Source of the DNA: Planctomycetota bacterium
GTDB lineage: Bacteria; Planctomycetota; GCA-002687715; DRQF01
DNA length: 10,261 bases
Assembly (NCBI GenBank): GCA_036479435.1
Contig: JAZGFI010000207.1
Span: 1 to 10,261 of the forward strand
Direction of reading: 5' to 3'
Position numbers and translations under genes: made by a program. The notes beneath the pieces were generated by a model. It saw only the letters and a list, made by a program, of their open reading frames with translations. It was not told where the DNA came from and searched no databases. Each line of letters opens with the position of its first letter. Position 1 is the first letter of the stretch. Of the stretch, positions 1 through 10,261 are shown piece after piece.

Positions 1-111
1 AGCTGGTGGTCGACCTTGGCCGGATGGGATTGGGTACCCATAGGGTTTCGAACAAAGTTTCAGATCTGACTAAGTCATTTCGTACTCCTTGACTGAGCTT
101 TCCCAGCGCAC
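1..111 (-). mobile_element. Group II intron 5' end (start of domain I), truncated by the window edge
   Basis: The minus strand from 111 reads GTGCGCTGGGAAAGCTCAGTCAAGG, matching the canonical GUGYG 5' terminus. It begins exactly where the 15-nt match to the empty target site (10069-10083) ends. Short hairpins follow (CTGGG-AAAG-CTCAG; AGTCA...TGACT). Confidence 0.85.
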
Positions 112-126
112 TGACGCCGTATAGCC
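112..126 (-). repeat. Outer arm of a palindromic repeat, serving as 5' exon (predicted IBS1/IBS2) of the left intron copy
   Basis: TGACGCCGTATAGCC (112-126) is the exact reverse complement of GGCTATACGGCGTCA (10069-10083). It lies 2 bp after the stop codon of the 129-350 gene. Confidence 0.85.
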
Positions 127-128
127 AG

Positions 129-350
129 TTAGCGGCGGTCTCGACTTGGTTTGAGGTTGACGTAGAGGGCGAAAGCGGCGAAGAGGATGAGTTGGTTTCC
201 GAACAGGCCAAAGAAACCGTAGCCAAACATCGAAAGAGCCGACGCAGCGCAACTCAGTGCGCCCCAGAGCAGGCCGGATTTCCCCTCGAATTGCGCCATG
301 CGGACGAAGAGAATCCCCAGGGCGATCATGACGACAGCCATCATTTGCAT
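129..350 (-). CDS. Small hypothetical membrane protein (about 73 aa, 2-3 TM helices)
   Basis: ATG at 350 is preceded by SD-like AAGAGGG. The product has hydrophobic segments (MAVVMIALGILFV; GLLWGALSCAASALSMFGYGFFGLFG; LILFAAFALYV) and a basic C-tail. The ORF-track start at 416 adds a less protein-like N-terminus. Confidence 0.7.
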   Translation of the reverse strand: MQMMAVVMIALGILFVRMAQFEGKSGLLWGALSCAASALSMFGYGFFGLFGNQLILFAAFALYVNLKPSRDRR

Positions 351-546
351 GGACCCTCTTGACTGACGACAGCTAACACTCAAGACCAGCGACCGGCCAC
401 CAGGGTGTTCTCGCACCTAAGCCCTAGCCTTGACGATAGGAATGCGACCCTATTGCATCATTCTCGCGGCTAAGAGGCCTTTTCGAAACTTCTGGCGAAA
501 GGCAGGGTTGGAGATGGACGACTAGCCTACGAGGAGTACTTCACTG

Positions 547-2328
547 ATGTTCGCTCAATCATCCCGATTTTCATCCCATCATGGGCTAAGAACGGTCGCG
601 GTCAAGTGGGTCCTCGTGCTCACGATGACGCTGGGAGCAAGTTGCGCTGCGATGGCCCAAGACCGCAGCCCCTTGGCCGCTCTTCCCAAAGCAGAATGGG
701 ATTGGAACAAGGCGCGACACCTTCTCTTCCGCGCCGGATTCGGCGGAACCAAGCTCGAGATCGATGCCTTGCATGCTCTCGGCCTCGAGGGTGCCGTCGA
801 CTTGTTGGTGGACTACGAAAGCACCCCGAGCGGCCCCGACTTCGCGGGTGAATTCCCAGAAGCGCTGCGCCGGGTCGCCATGGTCGGTTTGTCCCGAGAA
901 GAGATTCAGAAGAAGCGACAGACCCTCCGACGCAAAAACGGGCGGCTTTTGGGACAGCTTCGCCAGTGGTGGATCACACGCATGGCTAGGACCAAGCGGC
1001 CGCTAGAAGAAAAACTCACCTTGTTTTGGCACGGGCACTTCACCAGCGGGTTTCGCGACGTTCGCAACACCTTGCACATGTGTCAGCAAAACGACCTTTT
1101 GCGCGAGTACGCCTCGGGCAACTTCGCCGAGTTCGTTCACAACGTCGCCAAAGACGCCGCGATGCTGGAATACCTCGACAACAACCGCAACCGCCGGGGC
1201 CAGGCGAACGAAAACTTCGCCCGCGAAGTGATGGAGCTATTTACGCTCGGCATCGGCAACTACAGCGAAGAAGACATCAAAGAAGCCGCCCGCGCCTTTA
1301 CGGGTTGGACTTTTGACCAGAGTGGCGGTTTTGTGTTCAACCAACGGCAACACGACTTCGGCCTCAAAAACTTCATGGGCAAGAAGGGTCGACTAACTGG
1401 CGAAGACGTCATCGATACCCTGCTCGCCAATGACCGCACTGCGGTCTACATCTGCGGCAAGCTCTTTTCTTACTTTGGCCACCGCAAGCCCTATCCGGTC
1501 TTGGTGCAAGCCCTCGCCGCCGAGCTCAGAACACCCCGTGGCGACAAAAAGCAGGGCTACGAACTAAAGCCCGTCCTCAAGACCATCTTCAAAAGTCGCG
1601 CCTTCTACGATGAAAAGAGCATGGGTTGCCGCATCAAAAGCCCCATCGAACTCGTGGTCGGCGCGATTAGGCAATTAGAGCTGCCGGCGGACAAAGCCGC
1701 CCGACTCGGCGGAGCCATGGCGGCCCAGATGGGCCAGACCCTGTTCGATCCGCCGAACGTCAAAGGTTGGGCCGGGGGCCGCGAGTGGATTTCGACCTCT
1801 GCCCTTTACGATCGCTACAACTTCGCCGGCTTGGTGACACGAGATCTTTCGGCCGACACTTTTCGGATGCAAACGCCCGCGCCTAACGAGATGTCGGCGG
1901 AAGCCTCCATGTCGTCCGGTGCCGTCGGCGGTCGAGTACGCGGTGAAGAATTCGTGCCGACTTCCCCGCGAGAAGATTCCATGGAAGGCATGGAGGCGGC
2001 TCGTGCCGACGGTAAGCCAGATGACCGCAAGGCTCGTCGCGACCGAAGCCAGACTTTCCGAGCGCTGCAAATGCGCTTCCCCTTCCCCGCCGCCAAGATG
2101 GTGAAAGCTAAGGATCTCAGTCAACCCGACGAGATCGTCGATGTGCTGTCTCGGACTTTTCTCGCGGTGAACCTGCCCAGCACCTCCCGAGCGGAGCTCA
2201 TCAGCTATCTCAACACCGACACCTTCGGCAAGTCCTCAGCATTCGATATTGAACGTTGGGATGCTTCGCGCCGCCTAAAGGGCATGTTGCACTTGCTCTT
2301 CAGCACGCCCGAATACCAGATCAACTGA
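547..2328 (+). CDS. DUF1800 family protein with probable Sec signal peptide
   Basis: Family motifs: ARHLLFRAGFGG, LEEKLTLFWHGHF, MLEYLDN, NENFAREVMELFTLG, YSEEDIKEAARAFTGW, RIKSPIE, MGQTLFDPPNVKGW, PEYQ. SD GAGGAG at 531-536. Hydrophobic N-terminus ends in AMA-QD. Confidence 0.92.
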   Translation: MFAQSSRFSSHHGLRTVAVKWVLVLTMTLGASCAAMAQDRSPLAALPKAEWDWNKARHLLFRAGFGGTKLEIDALHALGLEGAVDLLVDYESTPSGPDFAGEFPEALRRVAMVGLSREEIQKKRQTLRRKNGRLLGQLRQWWITRMARTKRPLEEKLTLFWHGHFTSGFRDVRNTLHMCQQNDLLREYASGNFAEFVHNVAKDAAMLEYLDNNRNRRGQANENFAREVMELFTLGIGNYSEEDIKEAARAFTGWTFDQSGGFVFNQRQHDFGLKNFMGKKGRLTGEDVIDTLLANDRTAVYICGKLFSYFGHRKPYPVLVQALAAELRTPRGDKKQGYELKPVLKTIFKSRAFYDEKSMGCRIKSPIELVVGAIRQLELPADKAARLGGAMAAQMGQTLFDPPNVKGWAGGREWISTSALYDRYNFAGLVTRDLSADTFRMQTPAPNEMSAEASMSSGAVGGRVRGEEFVPTSPREDSMEGMEAARADGKPDDRKARRDRSQTFRALQMRFPFPAAKMVKAKDLSQPDEIVDVLSRTFLAVNLPSTSRAELISYLNTDTFGKSSAFDIERWDASRRLKGMLHLLFSTPEYQIN

Positions 2329-2344
2329 GATTGGAACCGACACC

Positions 2345-3586
2345 ATGACGACAACAAACTCTTCACGACGCAATTTTCTGAGGTCTTCCATCATCGCGGG
2401 CAGCAGCGCGGCCTTGCTGGGTTTTGGGTCACTTGATGAGCTCATTGCCGCGGGCAACTCGGGCCTCCGTGGATTGGGCGACGACCGCGTCCTTGTGGTC
2501 GTTCAGTTGTCGGGAGGCAACGATGGCCTGTCGATGGTCGTGCCTCACGGCGACGATGCCTACCACAAGGCGCGACGGGGAACGCGACACCGCGCCGAGG
2601 ATGTGCTGCAACTCGACAAGTACATCGGCCTTAACCCGGGCATGAAGTCGCTCCGGGCGCTTTACGATGGCGGCGAACTCGCCATCGTCCAAGGTTGTTC
2701 CTACCCGACTCCCAACCGCTCTCACTTCAAGTCGATGGACATTTGGCAAACTGGGGACCTCCGCGGCAACGCCCAACCCTATGGTTGGCTGGGTCGTTTC
2801 GCCGACCAAGGCCTCGGTGCTGCCAAAACTGCCGACGCCAACACTTTGGTCGGAATCGGCAAGAAAGCCGAACGCGCCATCATCGGACAGCGAGTGAAGC
2901 CGGTTGCGTTCACCACACCGCAGTCCTATCGCTACGTCGCGAACCCCGCCCAGTTCGACACTTTTGACAAGCTCAACGAAGTCGAATCCACAACCGAGGA
3001 AAGCAACCTCGACTTTGTGCGACGTGTCTCCAAGAGCGCCAAGTCATCGTCTTACAGCATTCGGCGTGCAACCAGCGGTTACCAAAGCAAAATTGACTAC
3101 GGCCCGGGCCGCGGCCTTGGTGGTGACCTGCGGACGGCGGCGGCGATCATCGCGGCGAGGCTCCCAACTCGTGTCATCTACTGCACCATGGGCGGCTACG
3201 ATTCCCATGTGAATCAAAAAGGTCGCCACGACAACAACATGCGCCAGCTCAACGCCGCCCTCGGCGCTTTCCAAAAAGACCTCGTGCGCATGGGCCAAGC
3301 CGACCGCGTCGTCACCATGGTCTTCTCAGAGTTCGGTCGCCGCGTGGCGGAGAACGGCTCTGGCGGCACCGATCACGGCGTCGCCGGTCCCATGATGCTG
3401 CTTGGCAATCACATCAAGGGTGGCACCTACGGCAAGCACCCCAGCCTCACCAACCTCGATAAGGGCGACCTCAAGATGACCACGGACTTCCGTTCGGTCT
3501 ATGCCGCCCTGCTCGAAGATTGGCTAAGCACCAAGTCCGCGCCGCTCCTGGGAAAAACGCGAAAACTCCGAAAGCTGATTTCTTAG
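2345..3586 (+). CDS. DUF1501 family protein (alkaline phosphatase/sulfatase-like), Tat-exported
   Basis: Twin-arginine SRRNFL. Motifs LVVVQLSGGNDGL, PNRSHF, GWLGR, GGYDSH, SEFGRRVAENGSGGTDHG, DFRSVYA. It lies 16 bp downstream of DUF1800, the usual pairing. Confidence 0.93.
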   Translation: MTTTNSSRRNFLRSSIIAGSSAALLGFGSLDELIAAGNSGLRGLGDDRVLVVVQLSGGNDGLSMVVPHGDDAYHKARRGTRHRAEDVLQLDKYIGLNPGMKSLRALYDGGELAIVQGCSYPTPNRSHFKSMDIWQTGDLRGNAQPYGWLGRFADQGLGAAKTADANTLVGIGKKAERAIIGQRVKPVAFTTPQSYRYVANPAQFDTFDKLNEVESTTEESNLDFVRRVSKSAKSSSYSIRRATSGYQSKIDYGPGRGLGGDLRTAAAIIAARLPTRVIYCTMGGYDSHVNQKGRHDNNMRQLNAALGAFQKDLVRMGQADRVVTMVFSEFGRRVAENGSGGTDHGVAGPMMLLGNHIKGGTYGKHPSLTNLDKGDLKMTTDFRSVYAALLEDWLSTKSAPLLGKTRKLRKLIS

Positions 3587-8429: not shown

Positions 8430-9776
8430 TTGTCTAGATCGAAGGCGCAGCCGCCGAGGCTGAATCGCGCTCTGCTCCGTCTCGCCGTTCCCCTGTTGTT
8501 CGCCAACCTCGCCCAGACCATGTTGTCTTGGGTAGACACGGCCATGGTCGGCCGACTGGGCAAGAACGCACTCGCGGCCATGGGCCCGGCCAGCGTGTTT
8601 TTCTTGGTGCTCTTCCTCATTTTCTCCGCCGGATTCATGGGCATCCAAACGCTTTGCGCGCGGCGGTTCGGTGAGCAGAAGCTCGACGTCGTGGGCCAAG
8701 TCTTCACCAACGGGCTCGGGGTTTCGATTCTTGTCGGTCTGTTTGCGGGAGCCCTGGGCATCGTGGCCGCCGAACCAGTCGCGAATTTCCTGGTCGGCGA
8801 CGCCTCGATCGCGAGCATGACGGCAGAGTATCTCTCTTGGCGCTGGGGAGCGGTCATTACGCTGACCACGCTCTGGGCCTACAAGGGGTTCTTTTTCGGC
8901 ATCGGCGTCACCTGGTTCGACATGTACCTGGCCTTCGCGATGAACCTGCTCAACATCTTGCTGAATTGGATCTTCATCTTCGGGCACTGGGGCGCGCCCG
9001 AGATGGGTTTGGCCGGCGCCGCTCTTGCCAGTGTTCTCGCGACGGCTTTCGCGGCGAGCAGCTACATGATCTTTAGCCTACAGAAAAAGTACCGTCTGCG
9101 ATTTTCGCTCTACCGCGGCGGCATCAATCGCGACTTGCTCGGCCGCATCTTCAAGTTGTCCCTTCCCCGGGCTCTCAGTGGCTTCGCTTTCGGCGCTGCG
9201 ATCTTGTACTTCAAACTCATCGGCGACCACGCGGGCACGACCGCCTTGGCCGCCTCCACCGTCATCTGGAGATTCTTCGGCACCACGGTGCTCGTCTCGC
9301 TCGCGATCGGAACGGCCACCGCGACTTTGGTAGGTCAACGTTTGGGTGCCAATGACCCCGAAGGTGCCGACGCCACCGCGCGCGCCGCCGTCAAGCTCGG
9401 CGTTTTGTTGACGGGCAGCGTGTCACTGATCGTTATCTTTTTCCCGCAACTCATCCTAGGTTGGTTCAGCCAAGACACCGCCGTGGTTTCCGTTGGTACG
9501 CCCGCCCTTCGGCTCGTGGGAATCTTCATCGTCATTGACAGCGCCGGAATCATCATGTCGCGCACTCTCTCAGCGGCTGGTTGCGTGGTCTACGTCATGT
9601 CGATGGAGTTCGTGGTGTCCTTGGGCTGCATGCTGACGACCGCCTTTTTCCTCACCAAGTATTTCCCCGACAATCTCACCGTCATCTGGTGTTCTTGGGT
9701 CGTCTACATCCTCTGCTGGTACACCGCGATGGCCACTAAGTTCCTCGCTGGCGGTTGGAAGACGGTCAAGATATAG
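8430..9776 (+). CDS. MATE family transporter (probably DinF-like)
   Basis: About 12 hydrophobic segments. Motifs LRLAVP, VDTAMVGRLGKNALAA, NILLNWIFIFG..G.PEMGLAGAALAS, ATLVGQRLGA. The TTG start at 8430 is uncertain. Confidence 0.93.
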   Translation: MSRSKAQPPRLNRALLRLAVPLLFANLAQTMLSWVDTAMVGRLGKNALAAMGPASVFFLVLFLIFSAGFMGIQTLCARRFGEQKLDVVGQVFTNGLGVSILVGLFAGALGIVAAEPVANFLVGDASIASMTAEYLSWRWGAVITLTTLWAYKGFFFGIGVTWFDMYLAFAMNLLNILLNWIFIFGHWGAPEMGLAGAALASVLATAFAASSYMIFSLQKKYRLRFSLYRGGINRDLLGRIFKLSLPRALSGFAFGAAILYFKLIGDHAGTTALAASTVIWRFFGTTVLVSLAIGTATATLVGQRLGANDPEGADATARAAVKLGVLLTGSVSLIVIFFPQLILGWFSQDTAVVSVGTPALRLVGIFIVIDSAGIIMSRTLSAAGCVVYVMSMEFVVSLGCMLTTAFFLTKYFPDNLTVIWCSWVVYILCWYTAMATKFLAGGWKTVKI

Positions 9777-9837
9777 CTCCAGCCTAGCGCGCACCAAAGC
9801 CCTCTATCTCACGGTGAGAGGCCTTCCACGGCATCCC

Positions 9838-9865
9838 TTGACCTCATTTCGCCCCGTGCTAACCT
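9838..9865 (+). promoter_or_regulatory. Sigma70-type promoter for tRNA-Pro
   Basis: -35 TTGACC (9838-9843), 16-bp spacer, TGn extension and -10 TAACCT (9860-9865), followed by a GC-rich discriminator (GCGTCCG) as in stable-RNA promoters. Confidence 0.65.
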
Positions 9866-9921
9866 GCGTCCGTTCGCGGGTAGGCCGATTTTACCCCACT
9901 CTCCGCGAACCCGAACGCATT

Positions 9922-9996
<75 letters not shown>

Positions 9997-10002
9997 CTGA
10001 TG

Positions 10003-10038
10003 ACGAAAAAACCCGCTGTCGCCAGCGGGTTTTTTCGT
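10003..10038. terminator. Bidirectional intrinsic terminator
   Basis: ACGAAAAAACCCGCTG-TCGC-CAGCGGGTTTTTTCGT is a GC stem with T6 tracts on both strands, immediately after the tRNA. Confidence 0.9.
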
Positions 10039-10068
10039 GCCTGCGTTTAGTCCTGGCTAAGGAAAATC

Positions 10069-10138
10069 GGCTATACGGCGTCAGACTTAATTCTCCCGCT
10101 TTTTTAGGTTTGACCTAAAAAAGCGGGAGAATTAAGTC
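10069..10138. repeat. Long palindromic REP-like element interrupted by a group II intron in its right arm
   Basis: Perfect 26-bp inverted repeat GACTTAATTCTCCCGCTTTTTTAGGT (10084-10109), loop TTG, mirror arm 10113-10138. The left arm extends with GGCTATACGGCGTCA (10069-10083), whose mirror is missing at 10139 where the intron begins but is seen at 112-126. Confidence 0.85.
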
Positions 10139-10261
10139 GTCGGGTAGACCAGGGAGATTTTTCTCCCCAGCCCCCCACAGATCCGGACGTGCGCGATTGA
10201 CGCATCCGGCTCCTCGTTAGACGGGTTCGCTAAGTGATGAGGACCGAGTGGACTGCCCGCA
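10139..10261 (-). mobile_element. Group II intron 3' end (end of DIV, DV, DVI), truncated by the window edge
   Basis: Minus strand DV GAGCCGGATGCG-TCAATCG-CGCA-CG-TCCGGATC (10212-10180) has the AGC triad and a 2-nt bulge. DVI GGGGGGCTGGGGAGA-AAAA-TCTCCCTGGTCT-A-CCC has the bulged branch A (10145) 7 nt from the terminal AC (10140-10139). The AGC triad argues against class IIC; from memory the style resembles class E/F. Confidence 0.93.
10230..10261 (-). CDS. Probable C-terminal tip of the intron-encoded reverse transcriptase/maturase (partial)
   Basis: The frame reads RAVHSVLIT-stop, ending 17 nt before DV, where IEPs usually stop. It resembles the xxVHS endings I recall for endonuclease-less IEPs. 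Only 9 residues are visible. Confidence 0.5.
   Translation of the reverse strand, partial: RAVHSVLIT

Follow-up and report, generated by a model that had tools for sequence, protein, structure and literature searches.

Recurrent insertion of a group II intron at one position of a REP-like palindrome family associated with a RAYT-like gene in a planctomycete genome

Why should both ends of a single contig carry pieces of one group II intron, and why should one of them stop exactly at the base of a long palindrome? The question is raised by the stretch of DNA analysed here (the window), which is the entire contig C207 (JAZGFI010000207.1, 10261 nt) of a Planctomycetota bacterium whose genome assembly (GCA_036479435.1) comprises 299 contigs and 5.47 Mb. 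An earlier note on this DNA had proposed that the intron homes into a palindrome similar to the repetitive extragenic palindromic (REP) sequences. Our results confirm the observation and support its interpretation, except for one pairing predicted for the second exon-binding site (EBS2) of the intron. We consider it very probable that this intron, here called intron 1, retrohomes to one fixed position of a family of REPs and REP doublets forming hairpins (REPINs), tied to the system of a REP-associated tyrosine transposase (RAYT) of the Y1 type. The elements concerned are listed below by window position; IBS denotes an intron-binding site of the exon.

1..111, minus strand: first 111 nt of an intron-1 copy; its 5' end, GTGCG, begins at 111, and the contig breaks inside the repeat.
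112..126, minus strand: 5' exon of this left-hand copy, consisting of the outermost 15 nt of one REP arm, GGCTATACGGCGTCA, with IBS1 GCGTCA at 117..112.
10069..10109, plus strand: intact left arm of a REP doublet, with two empty intron sites.
10110..10112, no strand: palindrome loop, 3 nt.
10113..10138, minus strand: inner 26 nt of the right arm, which start the 3' exon of the right-hand intron copy, GACTTAATTCTCCCG..., with IBS3 being the G at 10138.
10139..10261, minus strand: last 123 nt of a second intron-1 copy, with domain V (AGC triad) and domain VI (bulged A), ending ...CTACCCGAC at 10139.

Both contig ends are pieces of intron 1 on the minus strand and come from two different copies, the assembly having broken at each of them. 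On the right, the Rfam model RF00029 (domains V and VI) matches at 10214..10139 of the minus strand with 42.9 bits (gathering score 40), the AGC triad read earlier in domain V is present within GAGCCGG, the intron sequence ends in CUACCCGAC, and the whole piece is identical (100%) to 13 other intron-1 3' ends. It abuts a 26-bp hairpin that is indeed perfect, its arms 10084-10109 and 10113-10138 being 100% complementary around a 3-nt loop. On the left, the 5' end reads GTGCG from 111 down, a form of GUGYG, and is preceded on the minus strand by the 5' exon GGCTATACGGCGTCA (126..112); positions 1..111 are identical or 98-99% identical to 14 other intron-1 5' ends, including that of a full copy at C135:664-2694. 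The two ends of the window match each other, since 111-126 is 100% complementary to 10069-10084 over 16 nt, and ligation of the left-hand 5' exon to the right-hand 3' exon reproduces the plus strand at 10069-10109 exactly, the right-hand copy itself having its far end off the contig, where it cannot be paired with a particular 5' junction. The intron thus splits the right arm of the palindrome at precisely the point where the left arm, still intact, reads GGCGTCA^GAC (the caret marks the insertion point), an empty intron-1 site on the plus strand between 10083 and 10084.

A chance match, for which the note had allowed, is excluded by the recurrence of these ends throughout the genome. BLAST searches with both ends of intron 1 located the 5' end 15 times and the 3' end 14 times, almost always where a contig stops. 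The 5' exons finish in GTCA with a G at -6 at every one of the 15 junctions and in CGGNGTCA at 13 of them, while the 3' exons have G as their first base in 13 of 14 cases and start with GAC in 12. Eight of these 14 continue through the hairpin to the far arm, GTCTGAC(G/T)CCGT...; the remaining ones are four variant or truncated modules (C62, C249, C27 and C55), one member of a second repeat family (C144) and one non-repeat sequence (C135). The target site of intron 1 is ...ACGGCGTCA^GAC.... A co-oriented open reading frame (ORF) of 95-792 codons ends 17-79 nt upstream at 12 of the 15 5' junctions, the exceptions being C135, C18 and C214. The copy on C135, of 2031 nt, is the only full one in the assembly; in the Logan contigs of three sequencing runs, intron 1 appears as one 2035-nt unitig or as a split unitig, and a Logan unitig links the two ends of the window with 1797 nt between them. 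The depth of the intron-1 unitig is 13-17 times that of a 9.9-kb unique flanking unitig in the three runs, a ratio that fits some 15 nearly identical copies. We read intron 1 as a complete group II intron (2031 nt) of IIB-type architecture that was amplified recently.

What is the palindrome? The pre-insertion element deduced in the note, about 85 bp with 41-nt arms and a 3-nt loop, is found without interruption at 12 loci that have both arms empty, and it is multicopy, with 54 empty and 13 occupied sites in the genome. The empty sites of this family, which we call family A, were collected by a half-arm search and a pattern census, and they read GCGTCA (28), GAGTCA (19), GTGTCA (6) and GGGTCA (1). 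One intact copy forms a perfect stem of 45 bp (-86.1 kcal/mol, z = -14.8 relative to shuffled sequences). The copies lie a few bases 3' of stop codons, bracketed by A-rich and T-rich runs, and a T-rich tail, for instance GGTTTATTTT, comes after the intact ones. A scan of 9700-10261 for rho-independent terminators gave 0 sites, the scan counting at most 20 pairs and the window copy being interrupted.

A search of the genome for Y1 transposases yielded two genes, on C289 and C144. The product of the first one (330 aa; Y1_Tnp, 31.5 bits, cut-off 23) matches positions 4-145 of the 146 positions of the NCBIfam profile NF047646 (REP_Tyr_transpos) with a score below the cut-off, and its gene is flanked on each side by two REP modules in inverted orientation. 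Inverted REP copies on both sides of a RAYT gene are the known layout of these systems, and published summaries on REPINs are consistent with it. The term "REP-like" used in the note is therefore justified, and the palindromes may be seen as REP doublets, that is, as REPIN-like elements. REPINs have been described as long-lived, vertically inherited repeats.

Other repeats were seen in this genome. The second RAYT-like gene, at C144:44255-45307, codes for 351 aa (NF047646, 74 bits, cut-off 80, E = 1.1e-20); on either side of it, in inverted orientation, stands another repeat, ...CCGTCGCTTT(T/C)C(G/A)GTACCACCC. A family related to A, family B (...AAACCC..TTCGCGTCAGACGATTTTCACTACCC), shares with it the core GCGTCAGAC; it occurs on C1, C18, C63, C66, C151, C264, C274, C277 and C279, and has 12 sites that are empty beside one that holds intron 1 (C18/C144). 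Nested or tandem forms, in which half arms lie head to tail or one doublet lies inside another, were found at C130:4426-4558, at C58:17328-17434 with C93:123-184, at C75:4563-4671 and at C82:8131-8170; the repeat itself seems to move or to recombine.

Palindromes placed after genes may also suggest attC sites, either of a chromosomal integron or of a cluster of attC sites lacking an integron integrase (CALIN), in which case the introns would be of the attC-associated type. The attC sites are palindromic and lie 3' of cassette genes. Group IIC introns, as well as IIB introns of classes E and CL1, have been reported at such sites or close to them (PMC7923331). However, the repeats described here stand on more than 25 contigs beside ordinary genes, in both orientations and with no cassette array (an integron integrase was not searched for), the window has two of them among housekeeping genes at a distance of 10 kb, the arms of the repeats pair perfectly, and members of the family flank a Y1 transposase gene. 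We regard this explanation as extremely improbable.

How would intron 1 recognize its site? In the full copy, domains I-IV match the Rfam model RF02005 (group-II-D1D4-6) with 144.7 bits, and about 660 nt of the intron RNA lie outside the ORF. This ORF, at intron nt 573-1937, codes for a protein of 455 aa with a YADD motif, which scores 341.1 bits on TIGR04416 (cut-off 300); in Pfam it matches RVT_1 only (E = 6.4e-35), and an endonuclease domain is absent in this search. Its relatives in the PDB come from classes C, ML and CL alike, with E values of 1e-44 to 2e-33, and since scores are similar across several classes they do not decide the class of the protein. The IBS1 proposed in the note, GCGTCA, has its counterpart in the intron: EBS1, UGACGC at nt 223-228, pairs with the GCGUCA of the 5' exon, and the same column covaries, pairing with the intron's own exon at -1 to -5 in 27 of 37 aligned related introns. 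Two groups of relatives, in genomes G006 and G008, have different EBS1 loops that fit different exons (GUGCAC with ...GGTGCAC, and GUGCGU with ...TTGCAC). The column at nt 288 (GGGGUC-C-AAGAG) pairs by Watson-Crick rules with the first base of the 3' exon in 16 of the 20 relatives whose intron 3' end could be placed, and we assign it as the IIB-type EBS3; in intron 1, C288 pairs with the +1 G at 13 of 14 junctions. A delta-delta' pairing by the U just 5' of EBS1 was considered and dropped, because this U is also present in three relatives read by eye (L033, L040 and L064), where it does not pair with +1. The far arm of the doublet holds UGACGC, the same letters as EBS1, and could compete for IBS1 in the precursor RNA.

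If pairing defines the position, what explains the preference for the repeat? The genome has 833 GCGTCAG sites and only 28 of them belong to the family; of the 12 insertions with a 5' exon ending in GCGTCA, however, 11 are in it (binomial 2e-14, the +1 G not being pairable to individual 5' junctions). Within the family, a C at -5 is found in 11 of 13 occupied and 28 of 54 empty sites (Fisher one-sided p = 0.03), and an A at this position in 19 of 54 empty sites as against 1 of 13 occupied; three doublets with A in both arms are without intron 1. One could argue that selection, and not targeting, has shaped this distribution, the intron inserting at any GCGTCA^G and the non-REP insertions, mostly genic, being purged. 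Such an explanation is possible though on the whole unlikely. It is in line with an RNA pairing that involves 7 positions only, EBS2 being unpaired, with the two insertions outside family A (C135, non-REP, and C18/C144, family B), and with the fact that bacterial genomes are mostly coding; but with 833 GCGTCAG sites available, C135 is the sole other intergenic insertion, and family B, with 12 empty GCGTCA^GAC sites in similar intergenic spots, has one occupied, compared with 11 of the 39 perfect family-A sites (small numbers). Furthermore, the near-identity of the copies leaves little time for purging.

The occupied sites also tell whether intron 1 arrived many times or once. Occupied repeats vary in outer arm, inner arm and loop, as the empty ones do, and this variety points to independent insertions and not to copies of one repeat-plus-intron unit. 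A single entry into one doublet, followed by spread of the composite by the RAYT transposase, could be imagined since REPINs are thought to be mobilised by RAYTs (PMC3337134, PMC3116915) and the nested and tandem forms suggest that the repeat moves or recombines. We find this very improbable: the outer arms of occupied copies read CTATACGG, TCATACGG, TTGTACGG and others, their inner arms TTAATT or TAAATT, and their loops differ; the other arm keeps an empty site in at least 8 occupied doublets; and the non-REP and family-B insertions still match EBS1.

A second intron, intron 2, only distantly related to intron 1, also uses these repeats. A flank of 91 nt beside the palindrome is common to three contigs, and this flank is the 5' end of intron 2. 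Its locations are:

C24 1947..2, minus strand: intron 2, 1946 nt, fully assembled (RF02005, 166.6 bits).
C172:1-91, C194:18161-18251, C185, C211, C247 and C237 starts: intron-2 junctions.

Intron 2 codes for a protein of 526 aa with an RVT_1 domain, 40% identical to the intron-1 protein, and has an unusual 5' end, GAUGCG instead of GUGYG. All three 5' junctions are in palindromes, the 5' exon being the whole hairpin and ending ...GTCTGAC(G/T)CCGT, and all four readable 3' junctions open with the outer end of the arm, A(T/C)A(G/A)C(A/C)GGTT. The site, ...CGCCGT^A, lies 9 bp from that of intron 1, in the same arm and on the other strand; the left arm in the window (10069..10109) has it empty, on the minus strand between 10075 and 10074 (CCGT^ATAGCC). 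EBS1 of intron 2, ACGGUG, fits CGCCGU and its EBS3, U, fits the +1 A; no fit of its EBS2 to the repeat was found. The C/A polymorphism at -5 of the intron-1 IBS1 (e.g. window position 10079) is the same base pair as -5 of the intron-2 IBS1. Two intron lineages that arrived independently in one repeat, with differently tuned EBS1 and EBS3, amount to a natural experiment in retargeting, and together introns 1 and 2 cause at least 33 of the contig ends of the 299-contig assembly. Diverged group II introns or fragments of them, 66-89% identical to intron 2, also occur outside the repeat, at C159:759-2655, C191:41-1923, C15:2151-2515 and C27:39607-39695 and on C121 and C26.

Is the association older than this genome? 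A 141-nt query containing the palindrome gave nothing outside the host genome when compared with 40 relatives (41 genomes in all). In G002, which belongs to another genus, the repeat family is detectable only by the core pattern, with 18 matches as against 0 for a control. There, a transposase homolog with 46% identity lies on contig C208 of G002 between two inverted modules, in the same layout, and an intron 74% identical to intron 1, with the same EBS1, is inserted at GTACGGCGTCA^GTCAATTTCTC. Conservation of the target core, the transposase and a related intron in another genus suggests a vertical route of persistence, with less reliance on horizontal transfer.

Two further observations concern the relatives themselves. 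A Phycisphaerae record contains six copies (L083, L085, L087, L090, L093 and L094) of a related intron whose protein is 56% identical to that of intron 1; all of them follow ...TG(C/T)CC(N)GA(A/T)TG(C/T)GG, their 3' exons are unrelated, and the pattern suggests that the intron homes to a coding motif conserved within a gene family. In L013 (G006:C95, around position 1672), a related intron starts 8 nt after the apparent 5' end of another copy (...GGTGCAC^GTGCGCGT^GTGCTGCC...), which may be an intron inserted within an intron.

The relatives also bear on whether the hairpin, and not the sequence, is what is chiefly recognized, with short pairings fixing the exact position, as in class IIC introns. 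Most targets of intron 1 are long perfect palindromes, the ectopic copy on C135 has a terminator-like hairpin about 20 nt upstream, and both introns 1 and 2 do without an EBS2 pairing and use short pairings as IIC introns do (PMC12584367). Against this, introns whose proteins are 55-66% identical to that of intron 1 do not lie in palindromes; they sit in unrelated sequences that fit their own EBS1. A class IIC ribozyme is ruled out by the size of the RNA outside the ORF (about 660 nt), by the location of the site inside the stem and by the downstream loop of family A, and the EBS3 column and RF02005 architecture likewise depart from that class. Moreover, the family-B insertion (C18/C144) is in the other arm, so that the loop is upstream of the intron, and this argues for reading of the sequence core and not of hairpin position. 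Recognition led by the hairpin is, in our judgement, distinctly improbable.

Several results weigh against retrohoming of intron 1 to a RAYT-linked REP family and have to be considered together. The insertion site is inside a very stable stem, and its location there should hinder pairing in single-stranded DNA. The seven RNA-DNA pairs of EBS1 and EBS3 cannot alone explain the preference for the repeat family, and protein contacts, DNA structure or post-insertion selection could be the extra determinant. An EBS2 complementary to the CTATAC region, as the note had predicted, did not materialise: scans of four related introns for complementarity and of the alignment columns of the whole family, made for both introns 1 and 2, placed the EBS2 loop of the class directly after CGAAA, where it pairs with the exon at -8 to -12 in many relatives, and in intron 1 this loop reads UUACC and makes at most 2-3 pairs with UAUAC. 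The C289 transposase scores 59.8 bits (E = 2.7e-16) on NF047646, below the 80-bit cut-off, and had no PDB sequence match at E <= 0.01; in intron 2, RF00029 returned no domain V match at E <= 0.1. Recent mobility of intron 1 is suggested by the near-identity of its copies only, and the Logan contigs of four runs, compared with the window, contained neither an empty allele nor a bridging contig at either junction. Short-read contigs break at every copy, so 5' and 3' junctions cannot be paired and doubly occupied doublets are invisible. A strand bias was weak: of 28 junction contigs, not independent of one another, 21 had a positive GC skew on the strand of the intron, and a comparison by ORF strand (123279 versus 109874 codons) was likewise too weak to use. 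Orientation of the insertions relative to genes was tried as a test and set aside, since many doublets are flanked by convergent ORFs and orientation is then uninformative.

We propose that intron 1 would be transcribed together with the upstream gene and spliced with the help of its maturase, exon ligation restoring the hairpin, and that the intron ribonucleoprotein would then reverse-splice into other REP copies. As the protein has no endonuclease, cDNA synthesis would be primed by nascent strands of the replication fork. Priming of this kind is established for endonuclease-less introns such as RmInt1. It is also stated for introns without an endonuclease domain in PMC7923331. The RAYT system may keep the REP core GCGTCAGAC constant because the transposase would need it, and a constant core would supply the intron with a multicopy, harmless and durable target.

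A tighter coupling, in which the link between the intron and the REP/RAYT system is mechanistic and goes beyond copy number, with a shared substrate, help from the palindrome or the RAYT, and possibly an arms race, seems to us improbable on present grounds. REP doublets and RAYTs would use single-stranded hairpin DNA at replication forks, the very substrate that an endonuclease-less intron needs, and the site could be exposed, or a primer supplied, by the palindrome or by a RAYT that binds or nicks it. Such help would replace the lost EBS2 contact and be the IIB counterpart of IIC hairpin targeting, and the C/A variant at -5, with A enriched at empty sites, could mark an arms race between the repeat and the two introns.

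Returning to the window, the genes between its two ends are ordinary: DUF1800, DUF1501, a dihydroorotate dehydrogenase, a glycosyltransferase-like gene, a MoxR-type AAA ATPase, a MatE transporter and tRNA-Pro(GGG). The features next to the intron sites, and the gene pair that follows the left one, are:

129..416, minus strand: ORF of 95 aa upstream of the intron and co-oriented with it, without a Pfam family; the TAA stop is 17 nt before the insertion site.
547-3586: adjacent DUF1800 and DUF1501 gene pair, ordinary.
9922..9997, plus strand: tRNA-Pro (GGG), adjacent to the REP doublet but outside it.
10003-10038: 16-bp perfect hairpin after tRNA-Pro with A and T runs on either side, ordinary and bidirectional terminator-like, separate from the REP doublet.

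Retrohoming of intron 1 to the REP family would add REP/REPIN elements to terminators, attC sites and insertion sequences as safe harbours for group II introns. About 30 perfect empty sites remain in this genome and would be usable by targetron-style tools in planctomycetes. The two principles involved, homing into repeated mobile DNA and use of REPs as insertion targets, are both already known, and the comparison with the known systems shows where intron 1 stands.

RmInt1 and RmInt2 of Sinorhizobium meliloti home into insertion sequences. Like intron 1, they are IIB-type introns without an endonuclease domain that have a multicopy mobile element as homing site, being parasites of a parasite; the host of intron 1, however, is a non-coding REP doublet in 3' untranslated positions and not a transposase-bearing insertion sequence, and it is shared by two intron lineages. 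REPs are themselves targets of insertion sequences, as reported for ISPpu9, ISPpu10, ISPa11, ISPsy8 and IS1397 (PMC1525189) and for IS481 in Pseudomonas fluorescens SBW25 (PMC11708052). These elements resemble intron 1 in that they insert at one fixed position of the REP and so gain many harmless targets, but they are DNA transposons with protein recognition, whereas intron 1 is a retroelement that would read the REP core by RNA pairing. A group II intron has also been found beside REPs in Pseudomonas putida KT2440, where a table entry gives 2 of 9 copies (22%) as REP-associated (PMC1525189). In our literature search, with most subscription journals outside its scope, this table row was the only link found between group II introns and REPs, and it is a weak precedent; the view of the note that the use of a palindrome family by such an intron is not well described fits this result. 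By comparison, 13 of the 15 intron-1 5' junctions are in the REP family, at one nucleotide position and with matching EBS1 and EBS3.

Introns of class IIC take the hairpins of rho-independent terminators or of attC sites as targets, inserting after the former or into the latter, and pair over short stretches (PMC12584367). They share with intron 1 the lack of an endonuclease domain, intergenic hairpin targets just 3' of genes, and short EBS-IBS pairings without EBS2 (PMC12584367). Intron 1 is larger and IIB-like, it inserts within the stem of one repeat family with a 6-bp EBS1 match, and the hairpin may be on either side of it. In the integrons and CALINs of halophiles, class E and CL1 IIB introns lie next to hairpins that are attC sites or resemble them, and the authors of that work state that such palindromic elements cluster with IS200/605-type HUH transposases (PMC7923331). 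These introns, too, have no endonuclease domain and lie beside palindromic elements active as single strands, but they are single, mostly truncated and located in cassette arrays, while intron 1 is present in full-length copies over a dispersed REP/RAYT family (PMC7923331 for the former). Finally, the IIB1 introns Avi.groEL and EcKTE56.groEL are inserted at the groEL stop codon and represent a specialised IIB lineage at the end of a gene, co-transcribed with it and without harm to it (PMC12584367), as intron 1 would be. In their case the target is the stop codon of a unique housekeeping gene; in that of intron 1 it is a repeat located 17-79 nt after many different stop codons.

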